Part shown: positions 848-25,674 of the stretch, piece after piece
How positions within the stretch are numbered: position 1 is the stretch's first letter
Layout of the letters: each line of letters opens with the position of its first letter
Source: Vicinamibacterales bacterium
GTDB lineage: Bacteria; Acidobacteriota; Vicinamibacteria; Vicinamibacterales; 2-12-FULL-66-21
Length of the DNA: 25,674 bases
Direction of reading: 5' to 3'
NCBI GenBank assembly: GCA_035620975.1
Contig: DASPFV010000150.1
Span: 1 to 25,674, forward strand
Program-made: the position numbers and the translations under genes
Notes under the pieces: generated by a model
Told to the model about the DNA's origin: nothing
Databases searched by the model: none
Seen by the model: only the letters and a program-made list of their open reading frames with translations

Positions 848-2854
848 TCAGCGACGGCTCCCCGCGAGCCCGAGCTCGCGCGTGCGCAGCTGCTTGATGC
901 GATCCCGCAGCCCCGCCGCCTTCTCGAACTCGAGGTTGGCGGCAGCCGCCTTCATCTGCGCCTGCAGGCCCGCGATGTGGGCGTCGAGCTCCGCCTGCGT
1001 CCGGAACGGCTGGTCCTCCGGCGCGACGGTCACGTAATCGCGCTCGTAGACGCTCGTCAGCACCTCGTCGATGCTCTTCACGATGGAGGCCGGCGTGATT
1101 CCGTGCTCGCGGTTGTAGGCCTCCTGGATGGCGCGCCGCCGCTCGGTCTCGCCGATGGCGTGGCGCATCGAATCGGTGATCGTATCCGCGTACATGATGG
1201 CCCGGCCGTTGATGTTGCGCGCCGCGCGGCCGACGGTCTGGATGAGCGAGCCCCCTGACCGGAGGAAGCCCTCCTTGTCGGCGTCGAGGATGGCGACGAG
1301 CGACACCTCGGGCAGGTCCAATCCCTCGCGGAGCAGGTTGATGCCGATGAGCACGTCGAACTCCCCGCGCCTCAGATCGCGCAGGATCTGGATGCGCTCC
1401 AGCGTGTCGATATCCGAGTGCAGGTAGCGGACCTTCACGGCCAGCTCCTGATAGTACTGGGTCAGATCCTCCGCCATGCGCTTTGTCAGCGTCGTGACCA
1501 GCACCCGCTCGTGTCGGCCGGCGCGCAAGCGGATCTCCGCCAGCAGGTCGTCGACCTGGCCCTTCACCGGCCGGATTTCGATCTCGGGATCCAGCAGCCC
1601 CGTGGGCCGGATGATCTGCTCGACGACGACCCCGCCGGACCGGTGCAGCTCGTACGGCCCGGGCGTGGCCGACACGAACAGGAGCTGCCCCACCCGGTGC
1701 TCCCACTCCTCGAAGTTGAGGGGCCGGTTGTCGAGCGCCGACGGCAGACGGAACCCGTAGGCCACCAGCACTTCCTTCCGCGACCGATCCCCGTGGTACA
1801 TCCCGCGGATCTGCGGCACGGTCTGGTGGCTCTCGTCCACGATGGTCAGCGCGTCGGGGGGCAGGTAGTCGAGCAGCGTCGGCGGCGGCTCACCGGGGGC
1901 GCGCCCCGTGAGGTGCCGGGCGTAGTTTTCGATCCCGTGGCAGTATCCAATCTCCTTGATCATCTCGAGATCGAACATCGTCCGCTGGTGGAGCCGGTGC
2001 GCCTCGAGGACCTTGCCCTCCGACTCGAGCTGCCCGCGATACCACGCCAGCTCTTCCTTGATTGTCTCGACGGCGCGCTTCGTCCGGTCCCGCGAGGTCA
2101 CGAAGTGGGTCTTTGGATAAATCGCCACCTTGTCGCACCGGCGGATCGTTTTGGCCGTCAGCGGGTCGAACAGCACGAGCTCGTCGACCTCGTCGCCAAA
2201 CAGCTCGATCCGGACCGCCTGATCCTCGTAGGAGGGATAGACCTCGACGATGTCGCCGCGGACGCGGAAGACGCCGCGGGTGAACTCGTAGTCGTTCCGC
2301 TCGTACTGGATCTCCACGAGCTTCCGCAGGATCTGCTCGCGGTCGATGCGCTGCCCCCGCTCGAGCGGCAGCATCATCCCGTAGTAGGCCTCGGGCGATC
2401 CGAGGCCGTAGATGCAGGACACGCTCGCGACGATGATGACGTCCCGGCGCTCGAAGAGCGACCGGGTAGCCGAGAGGCGCATGCGGTCGATCTCGTCGTT
2501 GATGGTCGCTTCCTTCTCGATGTACGAGTCGGTGCTGGGCACGTACGCTTCGGGCTGGTAGTAGTCGTAGTAGCTGACGAAATACTCGACGGCGTTCTCG
2601 GGGAAGAAGCGGCGGAACTCCTGATAGAGCTGCGCAGCGAGGGTCTTGTTGTGGGCCATGACGAGCGTCGGCCGGTTGACCCGCGCGATGCAGTGCGCCA
2701 TCGTGAAGGTCTTCCCCGATCCGGTGACCCCGAGGAGGACCTGCGCCGCGTCGCGGCGGTCGAGCCCTTCGACGATCTCGTCGATCGCGCGGCGCTGGTC
2801 GCCCCGCAGCTCGAAATCCGTCACCAGACGGAAGCGGTCGTATCTGGAAGACAT
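848..2854 (-). CDS. uvrB: Excinuclease ABC subunit B (UvrB). ATG at 2854 gives [24 protein letters not shown], matching the canonical UvrB N-terminus. An upstream GTG at 2866 is an alternative start.
   Basis: The translation carries the Walker A motif [10 protein letters not shown], helicase motifs, the [13 protein letters not shown] beta-hairpin region and a C-terminal UvrB/UvrC interaction domain. The stop at 848 sits 1 nt before the mlaE start. Confidence 0.95.
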
Positions 2855-2905
2855 GGCGCTCGGCACGCCCGCGGCCGCGGACGTTTAACCGCCGATCGTA
2901 CCATG

Positions 2906-2984
2906 CCACGGACCCACACGGAAGGGGCCACGGACGAACACGGCTCCACACGGAAGGCGGCCACCGACGAGCACGGCGAGGGGG
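2906..2984. repeat. Degenerate copy (forward orientation) of the dispersed CACGG-motif repeat family: CCACGGACCCACACGGAAGGGGCCACGGACGAACACGGCTCCACACGGAAGG...
   Basis: Seen directly. It contains the 16-mer CCACGGACGAACACGG, which is identical to 17441-17456. It is intergenic, upstream of uvrB. Confidence 0.7.
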
Positions 2985-3164
2985 CGTTCCAAACGCTCGC
3001 CGCGGAGCAGCAAGCACTGCCCGCCGCAAATGCGGCGCATCTCGCGCCGGTCTCGAGCATGCTCGGCTTTGTGTGCCAAGTGCGTCCGGCCGTCCGTCAT
3101 CTTCGTAATCTTCGCGTCGGGATCCTCATTTCAGGTAGGGGGTCAGTTTTCAAAACGGCCGACG

Positions 3165-3195
3165 TTGACACAATGGCGCACGGTGTAAGATGGCG
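3165..3195 (+). promoter_or_regulatory. Possible sigma70-like promoter for the VOC gene (TTGACA ... TAAGAT). A perfect 11-bp palindrome GTTTTCAAAAC at 3147-3157 lies just upstream and is a candidate operator.
   Basis: Hexamers read from the sequence in the AT-richer stretch 3100-3310. The spacing is about 15-16 nt, which is sub-optimal. Confidence 0.3.
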
Positions 3196-3310
3196 GGCCG
3201 AGCCTTCCCGAACGAGCAAAAATGAAACCGAAGAGCATCGACACCACGCCGCCGCGGCTGAAAAGTCCCACCGGTGGTCAACGAAGGTTGTTTCTAGGAC
3301 GGGCATCGCG

Positions 3311-3718
3311 ATGAAGCCGCGAGTGACCTCTCTCGCGCCGCAGTTCCTTGTCGATGACCTTGAACGCTCGATCGCATACTACAAAAAGCTCGGTTTTACG
3401 TTCGGCGAACCATGGGACGGTTTTTACGCCATCGGCGAGTTGAACGGACTGGAACTCCACCTAAAGGAAGCACCCCACAACCAGGCGGAGCGTCGCTGGC
3501 GGCGCGACTGTGAGCATCTTGACGCCTCGGCCGGCGTCGACGGCATCGAAGCATTTTACGAACAGTGCGTCGCCAACGGCGTCACGATCATCAAGGCGCT
3601 TGCTGGGACGGCCTGGGGGACGAAGGACTTCTATATCGAGGACCCCGACGGCTACATCATCTCCTTCGGCGGCAGCCCAGCGGCCGGGCCGTTGGAATCA
3701 CGCAGGGAGTCAAGCTGA
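3311..3718 (+). CDS. VOC (glyoxalase / bleomycin-resistance / dioxygenase) family protein, about 135 aa
   Basis: Translation MKPRVTSLAPQFLVDDLERSIAYYKKLGFTF...GTKDFYIEDPDGYIISF is the typical paired beta-alpha-beta-beta-beta VOC fold signature. An AGGA lies about 11 nt upstream. GC content and third-codon-position usage are visibly lower than in neighbouring genes. Confidence 0.8.
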   Translation: MKPRVTSLAPQFLVDDLERSIAYYKKLGFTFGEPWDGFYAIGELNGLELHLKEAPHNQAERRWRRDCEHLDASAGVDGIEAFYEQCVANGVTIIKALAGTAWGTKDFYIEDPDGYIISFGGSPAAGPLESRRESS

Positions 3719-3875
3719 CCGACCACCATGGCTCAGCGTTTCACTGCGGGCTGCTCTGGCCCCCTGACCATCTTGGGAAATGCGGTTCAGCCCTTCGGGT
3801 CGAGGCACAACGGGTCAGGATGATCTCTCCGCTGGCCCAGTGCCCTGCCCAGTCGTAATCCGCACGCCTGCTCTG

Positions 3876-3948
3876 TCCGTGTCTCGTCCGTGTTCTTCCG
3901 TGGCGTGGTGTGGCGTGGTGTCCGTGTCTCGTCCGTGTTCTTCCGTGG
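3876..3948. repeat. Two copies of the 27-mer CCGTGTCTCGTCCGTGTTCTTCCGTGG separated by CGTGGTGTGGCGTGGTGT. This is the reverse-orientation member of the CACGG-motif repeat family.
   Basis: Seen directly. It is intergenic, between the convergent VOC and VWA genes. Confidence 0.8.
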
Positions 3949-3960
3949 CCTGGCGCGGGG

Positions 3961-4881
3961 TCAGTGGCCCCCTTCGCGATACGGCGCGAAGTAGCCGGCC
4001 CGCGTCCGCAGCTTCGCCTGGCGCAGCTCGGGCCGCTTGAGGCGGATCTTGACGTCGCGCCACGATCCGTCGAAGCGCGTGTCCGACGAGATGTAGCCGA
4101 GGCTGTACCGCGCGCTGATCTCCCGCTGGATCGACTCGTAAATCCTGTCGAGCTCCTTGACGCTCGTCGGGAAGAACGCCTGTCCGCCCGTGGCGCCCGC
4201 GATGCGCTGCAGCTGCATCCGGGCCTCGTTCTTCGCCGAACTGGAATAGCGCTCCAGGTAGCCGATGGCGTAGAGCGTGACGTCCGACGCCTTCAGGAGG
4301 TCGAGCAGATCCGAATAGGTCAGCGAGCTGCGCGTATCCCCGCCGTCGGTGTACACCAGCAGGATCTTCTGTCCCAGCTGCGAGGCGGCGCCGTTCAAGT
4401 ACACGCCCAGCGCGTCGTAGAAGGCCGTCCAGCCGTCCGGCTTCCGCATCCGGATGCGCTCGATCAGCCGCGCGTACTCGCCCGACGAGTACCGCGCGAC
4501 GCGCACTTCCGTGTCGAAGTCGACGAGCGTGACGTCCACGGCCGTCGTGTTGGCGTTGAGGAACTTGACGACCGCCGAGCGGACGACGTGGATGTCCTTC
4601 TCCATGCTCCCGCTCGTGTCGAGCGCCAGGCCGAGGTGCAGCGGCAATGCACCGGCCTGGGGCCCGTCGTCACCCGCCGTGAAATAGCGGACCGCCTGCG
4701 CCTTGCCTTCCTCGAGGACCTCGAAGTCCTCGACCGAGAGGCCGGTCACGGGCGTGCCCTGCTTGTCAGTGACGACCACGGCGAAGTGGACGAGATCCAC
4801 GCCGGCGCGAAACGGCTGCTGCGCAGCTGGCGCCGCGACGGCGATCACCGCGGCCACGGAAAGCAGCATCGCTGAGCGCAT
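3961..4881 (-). CDS. Secreted von Willebrand factor type A (VWA) domain protein. ATG at 4881 gives MRSAMLLSVAAVIAVAAPAAQQ, a signal peptide. A longer GTG start at 4908 is possible.
   Basis: The translation has a signal peptide followed by a VWA domain with a MIDAS-like DTSGSM motif (LALDTSGSMEKD) and a C-terminal extension. Confidence 0.75.
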   Translation of the reverse strand: MRSAMLLSVAAVIAVAAPAAQQPFRAGVDLVHFAVVVTDKQGTPVTGLSVEDFEVLEEGKAQAVRYFTAGDDGPQAGALPLHLGLALDTSGSMEKDIHVVRSAVVKFLNANTTAVDVTLVDFDTEVRVARYSSGEYARLIERIRMRKPDGWTAFYDALGVYLNGAASQLGQKILLVYTDGGDTRSSLTYSDLLDLLKASDVTLYAIGYLERYSSSAKNEARMQLQRIAGATGGQAFFPTSVKELDRIYESIQREISARYSLGYISSDTRFDGSWRDVKIRLKRPELRQAKLRTRAGYFAPYREGGH

Positions 4882-5009
4882 AGGCCCCCCCGGATTCCGG
4901 CACGACACGGCCGGCGTCGCATCGGGTCATGATACGCGGATCGGCGCCTGCGGGTACCCCCGTGGCGGGCCCGGCGCAGCCGCCACGCCGCTTCCGTCGT
5001 ATAATGGGA

Positions 5010-7700: not shown

Positions 7701-9152
7701 TCAGCGGTGGACCGCCTCCGTGCGCTCGGCGCTGCCCGCCACGATCGGCTCGATGAACTGGCGGTAGGCGTCCTCGTAGCCCCGATCGAGCTGTTCGCCG
7801 AGCGTGTGCACCCGATCCGACCGCTCGTCGTAAATGCCGGCGAAATCGAGCGGGCCGAGCGGGTTGTGCAGGGGGCGGATGACGAACAGCCCGGCGTAGC
7901 GGCCGGCGGCGTGCTCGACGACGTCGCGGAGCGCTGCGGCCTCGAAGCTGGCCAGCTGTTCGGCGGCGTAGCCCCGCAGATCCGCGCGGCCGGCGCTGAG
8001 CTCGTGGGGTCGGCCTGCGGCCGGCGTGGCCGCCGCGAGGATAATCTGCTCGGCGCCGGCGGCGGTGACCTCTTCGATGACGCGCGCGAGCGAGCCCGGA
8101 CGATCGCAGAGCCGGTGCGACTCGCCCCGCCACGGGCCCTCCGGCGCGAAGTGCACCAGGTGGGGCTCGGTGCCGATGGGAAGCGCGAGCGAGGCGATCA
8201 CCGCGTCGAGCGCGTGGTCGCGGGCCACACCCGTCAGATCGAATGCCTCGACGGCCCGCGCCGCCGTGTCAGGTGCCTGGCGGTTGAAGAACCGCCCCCG
8301 GTACGGGCCTCCCAGCAGCGCGAAGACGAGATCGCGCCGCGCATCGAGGTCGTGGACGATGATGAGCAGCTCGCGGAACCCGGGCTGCCCGAGGTTCTCG
8401 GTCAGCAGGTCGATGAAGCGCCGGGCCAGCTCGGCGCGCGGCGGCGCGCCGAGCGGGGCCGCGCCCCGAATCAGGTTCCACAACTCCGAGGTGCACCGCT
8501 CGGCGAGGGATGCGGCCGCGAGAGGACCACCCAGCACGCGGCCGGCCAGCCCCCGCTGCGCCCGGCGCCTCCCGCCCCCGCGCCGGGACGGCAGCAGCGT
8601 CGTGAACCCCGCCGCAATCGCGACGAGCACTGCCAGCAGGGCCAGGCGCGGGATCACGGTCGGCAGCGCGTGCGGCGCGAACGCCGCCGCAATCACACGC
8701 GCGTACCCGCCCGCGATCGCGGTTCCGGCTCCGGTCAGCCCCACGAAGGTGAGGATCATCCCCGCCATCGCGGCGATGACAGCGGCGACCAGGAGGACCA
8801 GGGGCACGGCGACGATGGCCCCCGCAGCGACGACGCTCCATCCGGCGGCGCGAAGGGCGGGCCGCCACGCGTAGTACTTCTGCGATGCCGCGCCGCGCCA
8901 CAGACCGCCAGGCTCCCACAGGCGGGCCCCGCCATCCATGGCGGCGAACGCCGCGCCCACAGACCCAATCCCCCGGGCCGCCACGAGATCGATCCGGATG
9001 CCGGCTTCGTGCAGGGCCCGCAGCACGCCCGCGTGATACGCGCCGGCGGTCCCCGTGCCGGTGAGCACGAGCGCCGTCCGCAACCGGGTGGAATACTGAC
9101 GATCGGGACTCTCGGGGGTGACGGCCACGGCAGTCAACGGGAGCGCTGACAA
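7701..9152 (-). CDS. Membrane-associated patatin-like phospholipase family protein. The start is uncertain: TTG at 9152 or a downstream GTG.
   Basis: A glycine-rich oxyanion motif (LVLTGTGTAGAYHAG), a GxSxG-type nucleophile (RGIGSVGAA) and a DGG/A catalytic Asp motif (MDGGARL) are present. Several predicted TM helices follow. Confidence 0.75.
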   Translation of the reverse strand: MSALPLTAVAVTPESPDRQYSTRLRTALVLTGTGTAGAYHAGVLRALHEAGIRIDLVAARGIGSVGAAFAAMDGGARLWEPGGLWRGAASQKYYAWRPALRAAGWSVVAAGAIVAVPLVLLVAAVIAAMAGMILTFVGLTGAGTAIAGGYARVIAAAFAPHALPTVIPRLALLAVLVAIAAGFTTLLPSRRGGGRRRAQRGLAGRVLGGPLAAASLAERCTSELWNLIRGAAPLGAPPRAELARRFIDLLTENLGQPGFRELLIIVHDLDARRDLVFALLGGPYRGRFFNRQAPDTAARAVEAFDLTGVARDHALDAVIASLALPIGTEPHLVHFAPEGPWRGESHRLCDRPGSLARVIEEVTAAGAEQIILAAATPAAGRPHELSAGRADLRGYAAEQLASFEAAALRDVVEHAAGRYAGLFVIRPLHNPLGPLDFAGIYDERSDRVHTLGEQLDRGYEDAYRQFIEPIVAGSAERTEAVHR

Positions 9153-9636: not shown

Positions 9637-9650
9637 CGCCGCTGATCCTA

Positions 9651-9780
9651 GCACGGCCGCGGACACACACGGCCACGGAAGAACACGGCCACGGAAGAAC
9701 ACGGCCACGGAAGAACACGGCCACGGAAGAACACGGAAGAACACGGCCACGGAAGAACACGGAAGAACACGGACATACAA
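9651..9780. repeat. Tandem array of the CACGG-motif repeat family: the 16-mer CACGGCCACGGAAGAA four times, then mixed 10-mer (CACGGAAGAA) and 16-mer units, ending ...CACGGACATACAAT
   Basis: Seen directly. The units abut one another with no unique spacers. The array lies in the divergent intergenic region between greA (-) and the trmH-family gene (+). Confidence 0.9.
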
Positions 9781-9781
9781 T
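9776..9781 (+). promoter_or_regulatory. Perfect -10-like hexamer TACAAT formed by the 3' terminus of the repeat array, 8 nt before the GTG start of the methyltransferase gene. Implies a leaderless or near-leaderless transcript.
   Basis: Seen directly. There is no obvious -35 element; the tandem repeats occupy the upstream region. Confidence 0.35.
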
Positions 9782-9789
9782 ACTCGTCT

Positions 9790-15247: not shown

Positions 15248-17413
15248 CTACTTCGCGAGCGGGTCCGGCCGGAGCTGGACCTTCATCACCTTGGGCGGCG
15301 TGCCCTTGCCCCCTTCCATATGGAACGGCGTACGCGTGCTCACGGTCGTCCACAGGCCGCGGCCCTTCCAGCCCGCCTTCGGGTCGTCGATGCGGCCGTC
15401 GAGCCATTTGGTGTAGTAGCCCATCGGGTACGGCACGCGCAGCACGACCCACGCACCGTCCTTCAGCACGAGCAGGCCTTCGGACGCATTCCCGGTGTTG
15501 ATCGGCACGTTGCGCCCGAGCCCCAGCGTGTCGAACTGGTCGACCCACGTGTAGTAGCTCGCCTCCGCGCTCCCCGGATCGGTCACGCCCTTCAATTGCG
15601 GGAGCGGCTCCTGATAGAGGGTCCACCCTTCGGGGCAGTGCTGGCCCGTCGCCTTCGGCCCGTTCAGCGGACCCTTGCACTTGCGGCGGTCGAAGCTCGC
15701 CAGGTGGCCGCTCGCGAGTGCCACCCAGGCTACGCCATCGCGATCGATGTCCATTCCGCGCGGCGAGAAGCCCTGGACTCGCGCGCCCGGATTGTTGAAC
15801 GGCGGCTCGTATACTTCGACGAGTGTCGTCTCCGGCGGGTTCGCGCCCGGCACCAGGCGCACGACCGCACCGGGGAAGCCCAGTACCGATCCCCAGACCG
15901 ACCCGTCGGGTGCTGGTGACACGGCGTAGAATCCTGCGCCGTACCGCTTGTCCTTTGCCGGATCGACGGGCTGGTCCGGCTCCACGTAGGCGTCACGCTT
16001 ACCGTTCCCGTTGGTATCGATGACGAGCGCCGTCCATCCCTGCGACTTCTCCTCGTCGCCGGTCTCGTCGAACATTCTCGTGTTCAGCCAGCCCACGACC
16101 TGTTGCCCGCCGCTCGTCCAGAGCGTGTGGTTCGCGTCCTCGGCAAACATGAGGTGATGCGTGCTGAAGCATGTGCTGATGTGGGTCAGCTTCTGCGTCT
16201 TCGGGTCGTAGACGGCGAGGTGGCGGCCGGCTCTCGCCAGCGGATAGAGCTGCGCCGACGGGTGTGCCGACCCTGCCTTGCAGAAATCCGGGTTGTCGGG
16301 AGGCCTGACCGTGGAGGTGATCCAGACGCGGCCCAGATGATCCAGCATCGGGTTGTGCACGTTGTTCTTGCTCGTCCAGATCACTTCCGCGCCCCAATAC
16401 GGCGATGGCTGCACCATCAGGGGCGAGGTGGGTGCGGTCGCTGGATCGCGGACCGTCAAGGGCACCCTGCCTGCTCGGTGTTGCACGGGGTCGAGCACGG
16501 GCAGGTAGTCGGCGCTCAGCTCGAGCGCGCCGTAGAGTGGGCCATCGGCGTTCAGGGTCGGGTTCCGCCGATCGGTCGAAACCAGGTCGTGGAGATAATG
16601 CCGGGGATCCGCCCAGTCCCAGATGGTGATGACGACGTTCCGCTCCAGTCCCTGCGGGCGCGGCGGCGCTGGCGGCACTTCTCCGGCGGCGATGCGGTCG
16701 GTCCAGTCAGCGAACATCGCCAGCGCGCGGTCGCGGCCGAGCGAGTTCAGCCCGTTGATCATCTGGGCGCCGGCCTGGCCGGACTGCAGGCGCCGCTCCC
16801 AGGCTGCCGTCGACGACGGGAAGACCCCCAGCTCCTTCGGAATCTCCCGCGTGCCTTTGGTACCCAGTCCATGGCACGCGGTGCACTGTCCCGACTTCAG
16901 CAACCGGAGCCACTCCGCCTGCGTCTTCAGATTGGGCGAGACGCCGTTCTCGGCCGTCCCCGGGAACTCGCTCTTGTCGGGCACGCGCATCAGCGAGAAC
17001 CAGTAGCCGGACGGATAGTACTCCGCCGCCGCACGCGGCGACGGCGCCGGGACGGCCTTCAGATCGAGGCTGCGTCCTGGCTGGACCTTCTGCCTGGGCG
17101 AATCCACGAGGCCGTAACCGCGTACCCACACCTCATAGCTGGCCTTCGGGAGGTCCGGAACCAGGTACCGGCCGCGATCATCGGTCACCACGATCCGCGC
17201 GAACTTCGTCGGCAGATCCGTGGTCTCCGCGATCACCCACACGCCGGCTTCCGGTCCTTGTGGACCGGAGACGACGCCGGTGATGTCGTCCGGGTCGACT
17301 GGAACCTGAGCCCCGGATCCCTGTCCGCGGAGCGCCGTTCCCGAGATCATCAGGCCTCCGCCGCAGGCTGCTGCCACGAGCGCCGCCGTTGCCATCCTGG
17401 TCATTCGACGCAT
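15248..17413 (-). CDS. Secreted 722-aa protein with an N-terminal CarboxypepD_reg-like domain and a single CXXCH heme-binding motif (c-type cytochrome-like), followed by a large uncharacterised domain
   Basis: A signal peptide MRRMTRMATAALVAAACGGG is present. The CarboxypepD_reg-like stretch is VVTDDRGRYLVPDLPKASYEVWVRGYG, and the CXXCH motif is KSGQCTACHGLG. A strong GGAGGGAAG RBS sits upstream of the ATG at 17413. The ORF-track N-terminal extension, 17414..17527, runs through the repeat element and was rejected. Confidence 0.7.
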   Translation of the reverse strand: MRRMTRMATAALVAAACGGGLMISGTALRGQGSGAQVPVDPDDITGVVSGPQGPEAGVWVIAETTDLPTKFARIVVTDDRGRYLVPDLPKASYEVWVRGYGLVDSPRQKVQPGRSLDLKAVPAPSPRAAAEYYPSGYWFSLMRVPDKSEFPGTAENGVSPNLKTQAEWLRLLKSGQCTACHGLGTKGTREIPKELGVFPSSTAAWERRLQSGQAGAQMINGLNSLGRDRALAMFADWTDRIAAGEVPPAPPRPQGLERNVVITIWDWADPRHYLHDLVSTDRRNPTLNADGPLYGALELSADYLPVLDPVQHRAGRVPLTVRDPATAPTSPLMVQPSPYWGAEVIWTSKNNVHNPMLDHLGRVWITSTVRPPDNPDFCKAGSAHPSAQLYPLARAGRHLAVYDPKTQKLTHISTCFSTHHLMFAEDANHTLWTSGGQQVVGWLNTRMFDETGDEEKSQGWTALVIDTNGNGKRDAYVEPDQPVDPAKDKRYGAGFYAVSPAPDGSVWGSVLGFPGAVVRLVPGANPPETTLVEVYEPPFNNPGARVQGFSPRGMDIDRDGVAWVALASGHLASFDRRKCKGPLNGPKATGQHCPEGWTLYQEPLPQLKGVTDPGSAEASYYTWVDQFDTLGLGRNVPINTGNASEGLLVLKDGAWVVLRVPYPMGYYTKWLDGRIDDPKAGWKGRGLWTTVSTRTPFHMEGGKGTPPKVMKVQLRPDPLAK

Positions 17414-17427
17414 CGGCTTCCCTCCGC

Positions 17428-17490
17428 CACGGAAGAACACGGACGAACACGGTGCCACGGAAAAACACGGACAAACACTGACAGATACAA
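17428..17490. repeat. Forward-orientation copy of the CACGG-motif repeat, CCACGGAAGAACACGGACGAACACGGTGCCACGGAAAAACACGGACAAACACTGACAGATACAA. It directly abuts the RBS of the cytochrome-like gene.
   Basis: Seen directly. Its terminus ...CACGGACA.ACA...ATACAA is shared with the array at 9651-9780. Confidence 0.85.
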
Positions 17491-17615
17491 GAGGCCGGAG
17501 GACCTGGAACTCTGCGCCGGCACTCACCCTGAGGTCGAGCGATCGAGCCGGTTGGATCAGCCGGAGTATGCCACGTAATCCTCCAGGCGGGTGTCCTCGA
17601 CCTCCGGATCTGAAT

Positions 17616-17734
17616 CCGTCCGTGTCCGTCCGTGTTGTTCCGTGGCCTCAACGTCCGTCCGTGTTCTTCCGTGGCCTCAACGTCCCGTCCGGGTTGTTCC
17701 GTGGCCTCAACGTACGTCCGTGTTGTTCCGTGGC
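17616..17734. repeat. Reverse-orientation tandem array: about 4 units of ~30 bp (CCGTCCGTGTTCTTCCGTGGCCTCAACGT). It runs up to and overlaps the mutL stop codon.
   Basis: Seen directly. Together with 17428-17490 it forms an inverted-repeat pair around a 125-bp core. Confidence 0.85.
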
Positions 17735-19507
17735 TCAAATCCGCTGGAAGTTGCGCTCGATCTCCCGGCGCGTCATCCGCAGGACGACCGGACGGCCGTG
17801 CGGGCAGACGCTGGAATACGCCGTCCGTCTGAGCTCGTCCAGGATGTAGCGCATCTTCGCGAGCGTCAACGGGTAGTTCGCCTTCACCGCGGCGTGGCAG
17901 GCCATCGTCGCGGCGATTCGGCGCAACGCATCTTCCACGCGCGAGCCGCCGTCGAGGCCTTCGAGGTCGTCGGCCAGCGCGCGGATCGCCGCCTCGCAGT
18001 CGGCGGGCTCCAGTATCGCGGGCACGGCGACGAGGCGGAGGCTGTTGCCGCCGAACTCCTCGACCTCGAGGCCGAACCGGTCGAGGGTCGAGTTGTGCCG
18101 CGCGACCACCTGACGCTGCGCGGGCGAGAGCTCGATCAGGATGGGGGTCAGGAGCCGCTGGCTCTCGAGCCGGCTGGCGGTCAGCTTCTCCATCATCTGC
18201 TCGAACAGCACCCGCTCGTGTGCCACGTGCTGATCGACGATCGCGACCCCCTCGTCGTCCACGGCGATGATGAACGTGTCGCGGAACTGCCCCAGGGGGA
18301 TCATCGGGCGGATGTCGGCCGCGGAAACGGCCGGGGCGACGCCGCCAGTGGAGCCCTCCGGCAGCGCGTCCGCCGGCGCTGTGCCGGCGAACGCACGGAA
18401 CGCCGCGTCGTGCTCGGCGCTCCACCGGCTCCCGACCGACGCGCCGGACAGGACCCCCGGCAGCGGCGCGGCGCGCGGCGCGTCCGCTCGCGCGGCGAAC
18501 GGCGTGAACTGCAGCTCGGGGACGCGCCCCTGCCCGAGCGCCTCTCCGAGGGCCCGGCGCAGCACCTCGTGCACCAGCGACTGTTCGAGGAAGCGGACTT
18601 CGGCCTTGGTCGGGTGTACGTTGACGTCCACGCGGTCCGGCGCCAGCTCGACGAAGAGGTGCACTTCCGGGCTGCGTTCCTTGATGGTCGCCACCGTGTA
18701 CGCCTCACCGATCGCGTGCGCGATCGTCCGGTCGCGCACGATGCGCCGGTTCACGAAGACGTTCTGGGCTCCACGCACGGGCCCTTCGTCGCCCAGTGCC
18801 GCGATGTAGCCGTGCAGGCGGATGCCGCCCGCCTCCTTGCGCACCTCGATCAGATCGGGGCGCTCGCCGAAGAGCTGGAAGAACCGCTCGGCGAGGCCGC
18901 GGGCAGGCGGGCACTCGAGCAGGCGGCGGGAACCGCTCGTCAGCGTGAACCCGATCTCGGGATAGCCCAGGGCGAGCTGGGTCACCAGTCGTGAGACCTG
19001 GGCTGACTCCGCCGTGTCCGACTTCAGGAACTTGCGGCGCGCCGGCAGGTTGTAGAAGAGGTCGGCGACGTCGATGCAGGTTCCTTCCGGCGCCCCCACT
19101 TCGCGCTCGGAGGTGACCGTACCGCCGCTCACCCGGATCTCGGTCCCGCTCGCCGCGCCTCTCGCCCGGCTGCGGAGCACGAAGTGAGACACGGACGCGA
19201 TGCTCGGGAGCGCCTCCCCTCTGAACCCGAGCGTTCGAATCGCGGCGAGATCCTCGGGTGAGGCGATCTTGCTGGTTGCATGCCGCTCGATGGCGAGCCG
19301 CGCGTCGTCGGGCTCCATGCCATCGCCATCGTCCTCGACCCGGATGAGCTTCTTGCCGCCGAATTCGATGACGACGGCAACACGGCGCGCGTGAGCATCG
19401 AGCGCGTTCTCGACCAGCTCTTTGACGACCGACGCCGGACGCTCGACGACCTCGCCGGCGGCTATCTGATTGGCCAGGTGCGGCGGCAGGCGGTGAATCA
19501 CAGCCAT
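17735..19507 (-). CDS. mutL: DNA mismatch repair protein MutL, 590 aa, starting at MAVIHRLPP
   Basis: The GHKL ATPase N-terminus is LPPHLANQIAAGEVVERPASVVKELVENALDA, with transducer and C-terminal dimerisation domains. The ATG at 19507 overlaps the corA stop. Confidence 0.9.
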   Translation of the reverse strand: MAVIHRLPPHLANQIAAGEVVERPASVVKELVENALDAHARRVAVVIEFGGKKLIRVEDDGDGMEPDDARLAIERHATSKIASPEDLAAIRTLGFRGEALPSIASVSHFVLRSRARGAASGTEIRVSGGTVTSEREVGAPEGTCIDVADLFYNLPARRKFLKSDTAESAQVSRLVTQLALGYPEIGFTLTSGSRRLLECPPARGLAERFFQLFGERPDLIEVRKEAGGIRLHGYIAALGDEGPVRGAQNVFVNRRIVRDRTIAHAIGEAYTVATIKERSPEVHLFVELAPDRVDVNVHPTKAEVRFLEQSLVHEVLRRALGEALGQGRVPELQFTPFAARADAPRAAPLPGVLSGASVGSRWSAEHDAAFRAFAGTAPADALPEGSTGGVAPAVSAADIRPMIPLGQFRDTFIIAVDDEGVAIVDQHVAHERVLFEQMMEKLTASRLESQRLLTPILIELSPAQRQVVARHNSTLDRFGLEVEEFGGNSLRLVAVPAILEPADCEAAIRALADDLEGLDGGSRVEDALRRIAATMACHAAVKANYPLTLAKMRYILDELRRTAYSSVCPHGRPVVLRMTRREIERNFQRI

Positions 19508-25487: not shown

Positions 25488-25674
25488 CCGGGGGACTTCG
25501 TCCCCCGGACCCCCTTACACGGGCGCTCGCGGGGACCCCCTCCGCCCCGCGCCGCGCCCGTGGCTCACTCGCTCTCGCTCGTTCGCTCCCCACCCCGCCC
25601 CGCCTTCGTCCCCCGGACCCCCTTCCACGGGCGCTCGCGGGGACCCCCTCCGCCCCGCGCCGCGCCCGTGGCTC
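25488..25674. repeat. Direct repeat of a ~70-bp GC-rich element at a 108-bp period (25497-25567 and 25605-25674), each containing a 16-bp nested stem-loop. It lies upstream of glyS and is truncated by the window end.
   Basis: Seen directly. The two copies differ at a single position (A/C). There is an additional hairpin CCGGGGGA-CTTC-GTCCCCCGG at 25488-25508. Confidence 0.85.

Follow-up and report, generated by a model that had tools for sequence, protein, structure and literature searches.

A horizontally acquired VOC gene, probably derived from an integron cassette, between uvrB and a VWA gene of a Vicinamibacterales bacterium

Results

The contig DASPFV010000150.1 of a Vicinamibacterales bacterium (assembly GCA_035620975.1), whose nucleotides (nt) 1 to 25,674 are referred to here as the window, carries a small gene of the VOC (glyoxalase/bleomycin-resistance/dioxygenase) fold between uvrB and a gene with a VWA domain, and oppositely oriented arrays of a CACGG-type repeat lie on both sides of it. 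We consider it probable that this VOC gene is a horizontally acquired gene derived from an integron cassette, that a copy from a subclade without the cassette recombination site attC was inserted at the uvrB-VWA site, and that the CACGG repeats were not its vehicle. An original prediction, made from the letters of the window, had described an AT-richer segment between inverted repeat copies as horizontally acquired cargo that the repeat family had mobilised or captured. The results below bear out the acquisition; they speak against the repeats as its agent.

The VOC gene is foreign in composition and inserted beside uvrB

The VOC gene lies on the plus strand, from the ATG at 3311 to the TGA at 3718, and encodes 135 amino acids (aa). 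The protein matches Pfam PF00903 (Glyoxalase/Bleomycin resistance/Dioxygenase) over residues 12-119 with 41.6 bits, the gathering score being 20.6, and an exact-protein look-up returned no database record for it. The composition of the gene is foreign to its host. The G+C (GC) content is 68.2% in the window, 61.2% in the segment between the arrays (2985-3873) and 60.3% in the VOC coding sequence (CDS), in agreement with the AT-richness noted in the original prediction. The GC content at third codon positions (GC3) of VOC is 0.743 versus a host mean of 0.903 (standard deviation 0.042), and its codon adaptation index-like value, from an index trained on the genes of the window, is 0.49 versus 0.76 for the host. 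When 14 host genes were divided into 523 windows of 136 codons as the reference, only 1.1% of them were equally low in GC3 and 1% in the codon index, so that the codon usage check proposed earlier places VOC in about the lowest 1% of the host.

The VOC gene is also absent from this site in the relatives of the host, for which we compared the contigs of the closest UvrB proteins. The window UvrB is 86-91% identical in amino acids to UvrB of Vicinamibacterales and other Acidobacteriota. At the nucleotide level uvrB is 82-85% identical to four relatives (loci L086, L090, L211 and L212), and the similarity stops at 2854-2857 (2840 for L090), close to the ATG at 2855 that is likely the true start of uvrB, the open reading frame (ORF) tool having called a GTG at 2866. 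The VWA gene directly adjoins uvrB in relatives; overall, the gene upstream of uvrB is 0-237 nt away and is a VWA gene in five of six contig sets, as follows.

L086-L089 (one lineage): gene order DHH, VWA, uvrB, mlaE, with 63 nt between VWA and uvrB
L090: upstream gene weakly matching the window VWA, about 100 nt off; gap in DNA homology of 237 nt
L211 (closest; uvrB 84.7% identical in nucleotides): VWA 103 nt from uvrB
L212: VWA abuts uvrB
A further contig: gene of 357 aa with no Pfam hit, ending 1 nt before uvrB

Neither the VOC gene nor CACGG arrays were found in the uvrB interval of these five related lineages. Because these relatives have neither and the homology of the window to them breaks at about 2857 and is back at about 3980, the intervening ~1.0 kb is an insertion specific to the lineage of the window. 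The original prediction had named ordinary GC3 and conserved synteny in relatives as the outcome that would speak against acquisition; GC3 is atypical and the gene is missing from the syntenic interval. The region is laid out as follows.

848-2855, minus strand: uvrB, left flank (Pfam UvrB domains; nucleotide identity to relatives)
2895-2903, no strand given: ATCGTACCA motif upstream of uvrB, also found upstream of uvrB in L086, L090 and L211
2906-2984, plus strand: forward CACGG-type array (Tandem Repeats Finder 2907-2977, period 32; absent in related loci)
2985-3110, no strand given: spacer ending in the first TCGTAATC copy (3103-3110); no match in any locus compared
3111-3310, plus strand: upstream block of the attC-less subclade (alignments with L006, L007, L008, L213 and L214)
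3311-3718, plus strand: VOC gene, glyoxalase/bleomycin-resistance/dioxygenase fold (Pfam, composition, homologues, selection, AlphaFold2 model)
3719-3752, plus strand: 3' tail of the transferred unit; similarity to subclade copies ends here
3753-3873, no strand given: spacer with the second TCGTAATC copy (3853-3860) and no attC; no match in any locus compared
3874-3966, minus strand: reverse CACGG-type array (Tandem Repeats Finder, period 45; its core reaches 3947, leaving 13 nt to the VWA stop)
3961-4908, minus strand: VWA-domain gene, right flank (Pfam VWA; synteny in L086-L089, L211 and L212)

Conserved sequence ends with the ATCGTACCA motif; the inserted DNA follows, its forward array beginning 2 nt after the motif. 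The motif lies 12-49 nt 5' of the uvrB start in the window and in three relatives (near 6990 in L086, 760 in L090 and 3570 in L211) and may serve uvrB as an operator or promoter element.

Close homologues of the VOC protein are spread over four phyla

At E ≤ 1e-3 more than 4300 homologues were found; identity to the VOC protein is 76-90% for the best 120 listed. The gene was confirmed in 186 genome loci (one genome per species), and the best 80 of these are 74-90% identical and belong to four phyla: Acidobacteriota (Vicinamibacteria, Pyrinomonadaceae/Blastocatellia and Thermoanaerobaculia), Gemmatimonadota, Planctomycetota (including a 6.3-Mb contig) and Actinomycetota (Acidimicrobiia on a 1.2-Mb contig and Thermoleophilaceae on a 0.47-Mb contig). 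The closest proteins thus extend well beyond the host clade, which was the outcome foreseen for a mobile gene. Identity is unrelated to taxonomic distance, and the phyla are intermixed in a neighbour-joining tree.

The neighbourhoods of the homologues differ from that of the window, and DNA similarity is confined to the CDS, plus short flanks in the closest copies. uvrB stands beside VOC in no homologue locus outside the window; the sole VWA gene near a homologue (L042) is a distant match 5 kb off. In addition, the GC content of VOC remains at 0.53-0.65 across loci whose host flanks range from 0.49 to 0.74, so that it lies below the flanks in GC-rich hosts and above them in GC-poor ones. Among plasmids, phages and viral contigs, relatives of the VOC protein were at most 33% identical, or none were found. 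Horizontal acquisition of the VOC gene is strongly supported because the gene is absent from the site in relatives, is atypical in composition and has close proteins across phyla.

The VOC gene is an integron cassette in a large part of its range

An all-versus-all comparison of the flanks of the homologues revealed repeats of 70-110 nt at every 500-700 nt around the VOC gene in several loci, together with other modules of 350-550 nt that switch between the upstream and the downstream side of VOC from one locus to another. With their RYYYAAC and GTTRRRY core sites and two bulged stem bases, the repeats are textbook attC sites, as in GCCTAAC-AA-GCGCATG-CAGCTG-G-CG...CG-CAGCTG-ATGCGC-GGTCC-GTTAGGC. 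In an alignment of 34 sites, compensatory changes occur in 12 of 21 pairs, and 92.6% of the cells are paired versus 27-36% with the partner shifted by 1-3 columns.

A covariance model built from this alignment (R1; threshold E ≤ 0.01) found 85 attC sites in 27 of 83 VOC loci, 15 of which were outside the training set. All hits except one (84 of 85) are on the strand of the VOC gene, and none occurs in three control loci from the uvrB relatives. The distance from the VOC stop to the start of an attC is -11 to +11 nt in 14 loci (R1 scores of 45-95 bits in most), and in most of these the TAA stop of VOC falls within the attC core xxxTAAC; in 10 loci the ATG equivalent to that of the window follows the end of the preceding attC by 34-45 nt. 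The loci with attC at the edges of VOC belong to Acidobacteriota, Gemmatimonadota and Planctomycetota. Accordingly, the VOC gene is an integron gene cassette over much of its range (at least 27 of the 83 loci), and the integron, with its attC sites, is the mobility system documented for this family. The arrays around the homologues may be parts of long chromosomal integrons or clusters of attC sites without an integrase.

These results are in line with a survey in which VOC cassettes occurred in every environment sampled and were enriched in cassette pools (PMC10661359, Ghaly et al. 2023, iScience), which also upholds the earlier description of VOC genes as typical mobile cargo. attC types have been described for Acidobacteria and Planctomycetes (PMC8352920).

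Two other approaches were set aside. Long minus-strand ORFs near the first attC, considered as integrase candidates, looked spurious. A detector that combined regular expressions with folding gave, in its relaxed version, 0.27 hits per kb versus 0.19 per kb in shuffled DNA, and the covariance model was used instead.

The window copy belongs to an attC-less subclade with putative cassette relics

The window copy itself has no attC. With the filters off, R1 found no site in 2880-3990 (best score 7.9 bits, E 0.15 for 1.1 kb), and there is no credible attC elsewhere in the window. The gene stands neither in an array of cassettes nor beside intI or attI, its neighbours being uvrB and the VWA gene. 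A single hit in the window has E < 0.01 (7881-7964, 19.8 bits); it falls within a coding region, several of its pairs are broken, and chance is its most likely origin.

The ten closest other copies (L001, L004-L008, L014, L015, L213 and L214) likewise have no attC. Eight of them (L213 and L214 were outside the tree) form a clade with the window copy at 97% bootstrap, and this clade groups with attC-bearing copies at 78% bootstrap in the neighbour-joining tree, which was midpoint-rooted. The attC-less copies occupy eleven different chromosomal contexts, as a lone gene in each. The neighbours include a MazE/PemK toxin-antitoxin pair in L001 (6722-7220), IS701-like and IS630-like transposases in L005 (6458-9019; judged by eye from their N-termini) and sua5 in L213.

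The 5' end of the subclade retains traces of a cassette boundary. Cassette-borne copies begin with GTTAGCC or GTTAGTC, about 18 nt that include AAGGAGG, and then ATG ACT ACG ACC ACG ATG AAG; from these ends, the family start lies five codons 5' of the window ATG (a form of 131 aa). The subclade keeps this layout, which gives an ancestral form of 140 aa; at the 3' end its frame runs nine codons past the stop position of the cassettes, with no hairpin after it. GTTAGTC is retained in L006 at the cassette spacing from the start, and the window has the core relic GTGGTCA (3274-3280), which lies just before the region of the ribosome-binding site. The stretch 3248-3280, of which 3248-3273 reads CGCCGCCGCGGCTGAA..., resembles the 3' half of an attC (L'-R'); the best covariance-model score over 3156-3260 is 5.8 bits for an inner fragment, below significance. 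Because the attC-less copies are nested with attC-bearing ones in the tree and the GTTAGTC/GTGGTCA core relic sits at the cassette 5' boundary, we infer that the subclade descends from a cassette.

In the window, the ancestral start ATG, which in the family is preceded by AAGGA or AAGGAGG, has changed to AGG (3296-3298). Translation must therefore start at ATG 3311, an internal methionine codon conserved throughout the family with a weak ribosome-binding site, from which reduced expression of the window VOC may be predicted. An upstream ORF at 3223-3298 was rejected, as its ATG is not conserved in L006.

The subclade-wide unit corresponds to 3111-3752 of the window (~640 nt) and comprises a promoter-like block, the VOC gene and a short 3' tail. 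The block has a -35-like TTGACA (3165-3170) and a -10-like TAAGAT (3186-3191) separated by 15 nt, a spacer too short for the consensus promoter scan, which required 16-18 nt and found none. The promoter-like hexamers that had been pointed out in the segment do exist, and the block is kept in L006, L007 and L008 with a spacer of 16 nt, despite the lack of a consensus match; related blocks occur in L213 and L214. These six members, including the window, share the hexamer block and a GTTT(T/G)(C/A)AAAC motif. The perfect 11-bp palindrome that had been pointed out nearby, GTTTTCAAAAC, is present, one base off the position first given for it (3146-3156), and it is not beyond chance frequency, random sequence giving about one 5+5 palindrome of this kind per kb. 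In L008 (5937-6010) the promoter-like block abuts the CDS, with the ATG ~12 nt after the -10-like hexamer, which suggests a leaderless VOC transcript.

Within the subclade, synonymous divergence (dS) of VOC is 0.27-0.42, and the ratio of nonsynonymous to synonymous divergence (dN/dS) is 0.14-0.31, so that the gene is, judging by its substitution pattern, under purifying selection and functional. The dS of uvrB between the window and the insert-less relatives is 0.63-0.74; the two ranges are compatible with acquisition of VOC after the split from those lineages.

The VOC unit is part of a 742-nt stretch bounded by two copies of an 8-nt direct repeat, TCGTAATC. The left copy is at the left edge of the subclade unit and the right copy is 100 nt past the right edge; a third site lies at 17574-17581. 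We rejected TCGTAATC as a target-site duplication since the right copy is beyond the unit and there are no terminal inverted repeats, and the repeat remains unexplained: it could reflect chance (about 0.03) or microhomology at a junction, or it could belong to the repeat element.

The CACGG arrays are a generic intergenic feature

The oppositely oriented repeat copies of the original prediction were recovered as arrays by Tandem Repeats Finder. The arms around VOC are reverse-complementary beyond chance (local alignment score 25 versus 13.3 ± 2.5 with a maximum of 22 in 1000 shuffles), although they are divergent and not identical. The array sequence of this CACGG family reads CACGGAAGAACACGG. 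Further arrays are present in the window at 9644-9788, 17398-17487 and 17597-17738, and the last two form a second inverted pair.

17398-17738, no strand given: second inverted pair without cargo (forward array 17398-17487, reverse array 17597-17738), with ~110 nt between the arrays

At both pairs the layout is the same, with the reverse array after the stop of a minus-strand gene and the forward array before the start of the next gene. Similarity between the spacers of the two pairs (2985-3110 and 17488-17614) was at chance level apart from CGTAATCC, which is also found at 17574, 20-40 nt ahead of the second reverse array.

The 16-mer core CCACGGAAGAACACGG was found in at least 120 metagenome contigs (L091-L210), of which about 35 appear to be chance single hits and 85 carry real arrays, at GC contents of 41-70%. 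The CACGG sub-repeats are spaced by 10, 16 or 26 nt. The metagenome arrays are typically arranged as a forward array followed by a reverse one; the 61 pairs have a median inner distance of 71 nt and a 90th percentile of 223 nt, and normally enclose 14-400 nt of unrelated sequence and no genes. One subfamily has 33-nt ends, AATGGCCACGGAATCCACGGAAGAACACGGAAA, around unrelated interiors, and nested copies are present in L112 and L127. In L155 (69-1000), fragments of an IS256-type transposase lie inside the array region. No recurrent protein family or transposase was found near the arrays in the contigs examined, Rfam has no entry for the CACGG family and gave nothing over the window or the segment, and a literature search found no paper containing the repeat sequence. 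The family is apparently both widespread and undescribed; it probably is or was mobile, and its elements seem to tolerate or attract nested insertions.

These data bear on the proposal that the inverted copies bound a composite or MITE-like (miniature inverted-repeat transposable element-like) element that brought VOC as its cargo. In its favour, the inverted arms show significant complementarity, the interval in relatives has neither arrays nor VOC, and the family is widespread, mostly in inverted pairs with nested copies. Yet none of 86 other loci of the VOC family has the arrays, and the pair at 17398-17738 shows the identical layout without cargo. Other than the pair around VOC, the long pairs are explained by the IS256 remnant (L155) and by a chance hit inside a coding region (L197). 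The family has no associated transposase, no target-site duplication was found outside the arrays that flank VOC (TCGTAATC lies inside them), and VOC copies cease to be similar at 3111 and 3752, in each case more than 100 nt inward of the nearest array. We therefore regard the repeats as an unlikely vehicle. Because the arrays are absent from the 86 loci, occur as a second pair without cargo and form short pairs in metagenomes, they are a generic feature of intergenic regions, similar to REP (repetitive extragenic palindromic) or MITE repeats and normally without genes.

At the right end of the window, two 71-nt GC-rich copies (25496-25566 and 25604-25674), 99% identical and 108 nt apart, form a repeat unrelated to the CACGG family; the second copy is cut by the window end.

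The VOC protein has a generic fold and no resistance signature

The AlphaFold2 model (mean predicted local distance difference test score, pLDDT, 77) shows a generic VOC fold with paired beta-alpha-beta-beta-beta modules in the expected order. A structure search gave 182 PDB matches at E ≤ 1e-3, and the 50 best listed are all of the VOC fold. The best template modelling (TM) scores are 0.66/0.73 to the Tn5 bleomycin-binding protein (1ecs), followed by 0.58-0.63 to TioX, TnmS1/2 and Vibrio cassette proteins. Because the metallo-enzymes FosA/FosB and glyoxalase I match the model nearly as well, the fold search does not discriminate between the binder and enzyme subfamilies. The sole sequence match in the PDB is the uncharacterised Atu1872 (2qnt; E 6e-4).

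The NCBIfam models score far below their cut-offs: 29.2 bits versus 275 for bleO, 19.8 versus 210 for BLMT, at best 26.2 versus 250 for the fosfomycin thiol transferases (FosA/FosB/FosX), and, for glyoxalase I, 16.4 versus 120 (TIGR00068) and 19.5 versus 165 (GloA). Bleomycin or fosfomycin resistance is thus not indicated by the protein sequence. The family is strongly conserved, with 44 invariant columns among 34 sequences and a dN of ~0.1 across phyla even where dS is saturated. The VOC protein is most likely a dimeric protein that binds or detoxifies a small molecule and is expressed from its own promoter; our working view is that the predicted ligand is a small molecule common in soil.

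Discussion

The history that we favour would begin with an integron gene cassette of soil bacteria as the ancestor of the VOC family. One subclade would have lost the attC hairpin, extended its reading frame by nine codons and come to carry the promoter-like block upstream, seen in at least six members. The resulting ~640-nt unit would then have reached the uvrB-VWA site by attC-independent recombination, landing inside or beside a pre-existing, hairpin-forming CACGG inverted-repeat element. Of these steps, we infer the attC-independent arrival and the landing in an element already in place.

Several points weigh against this history. There is no attC, intI or attI in the window, and the cassette ancestry rests on phylogeny and short relics rather than on a functional site. 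A scan for the tyrosine-recombinase box-II motif, the only search made for an integrase, found none in the VOC loci (6-kb flanks) or in the window, and the attC arrays of the homologues may be clusters without a nearby integrase. The tree is midpoint-rooted; with the root on the branch of the subclade, the association with attC would be the derived state. The relatives have neither the arrays nor VOC, so that the priority of the array is not demonstrable from them. The mechanism that moves an attC-less unit is unexplained, and an assembly error at the repeats is formally possible. A broader form of the favoured history, in which VOC is an escaped cassette that has lost attC and gained a promoter, and whose ~640-nt unit disperses independently of attC to unrelated places in the chromosomes of different soil bacteria, maybe with a preference for CACGG elements, is put forward here tentatively, as we doubt more than we believe it.

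A different route from the same source would be the insertion of a circular VOC cassette by an integron integrase at a secondary site, that is, neither attI nor attC, followed by decay of its attC. The class 1 integrase inserts cassettes at secondary sites, the VOC family is cassette-borne elsewhere, and relics of core sites are present upstream of the gene. Against this route, the whole subclade is attC-less in its 11 contexts, which makes it most likely that the loss of attC preceded the transfers. The unit also has ~200 nt of promoter-bearing DNA beyond the cassette boundary, which a cassette circle would not contain, and there is no remnant of an attC downstream. We consider such an insertion quite improbable.

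A foreign VOC fragment mis-joined during assembly at shared repeat arrays is a very unlikely source of the locus. Repeats do lie on both sides and the repeat family occurs in many lineages, but on either side uvrB and VWA are exactly collinear again, the arrays that a mis-join would need are absent from the VOC loci elsewhere, and the arms are divergent rather than identical. Vertical inheritance, with VOC ancestral at the site, deleted in the sampled relatives and atypical in composition owing to low expression, fits an intact gene under purifying selection but is the least likely reading, given five independent related lineages with short intergenic regions and no VOC, no other genome with VOC beside uvrB, a GC content of ~0.60 whatever the host, intermixed phyla in the tree, and a dS to the nearest VOC copies (0.27-0.42) below that of uvrB to the VOC-less relatives (0.63-0.74).

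The locus is a concrete case in which one can follow how genes drop out of the pool of integron cassettes and, in uncultured soil phyla, turn into ordinary chromosomal genes with expression of their own. The family is unusually conserved and very widely shared in soil, which implies a strong and common selective agent. It also provides a caution, in that a pair of flanking repeats need not be the vehicle of the gene that they enclose.

Among known systems, the CACGG arrays resemble the REP, BIME (bacterial interspersed mosaic element) and MITE repeats in being short, intergenic, multi-copy and nested, in forming inverted pairs capable of hairpins, and in lying directly after stop codons and before start codons. 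They differ in their sub-repeats at 10, 16 or 26 nt and in the same 16-mer core across contigs of 41-70% GC, and, unlike REP repeats, they have no GTAG-type signature, no Rfam entry and no partner found of the RAYT (REP-associated tyrosine transposase) or other transposase type. As for the protein, drug-sequestering VOC proteins (BLMT 1ecs, TnmS1/2 and TioX) and the Vibrio cassette proteins 3ey7 and 3ey8 are among its closest structural neighbours, while their sequence identity to it is only 14-25%.

Integron systems without an integrase offer a closer parallel. IntegronFinder names attC sites without an integrase CALIN (cluster of attC sites lacking integron-integrases) or SALIN (single attC site lacking integron-integrase), categories that are defined by detectable attC. 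Like these and like cassettes at secondary sites, the window gene, as a probably cassette-derived gene, is away from any integron platform; unlike CALIN and SALIN, the window has no detectable attC, and neither does the whole subclade.

The closest known system is that of the VOC integron cassettes (COG0346/PF00903; PMC10661359). The window gene belongs to the same superfamily, and its homologues at 75-87% identity are single-ORF cassettes followed by attC in arrays. VOC cassettes are widely distributed across environments and are over-represented among mobile genes (PMC10661359). The window copy departs from them in having no attC or array, a promoter-like block of its own and an intergenic site among housekeeping genes. 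The VOC insertion is an event of a known kind, a documented escape of a cassette from the integron system.

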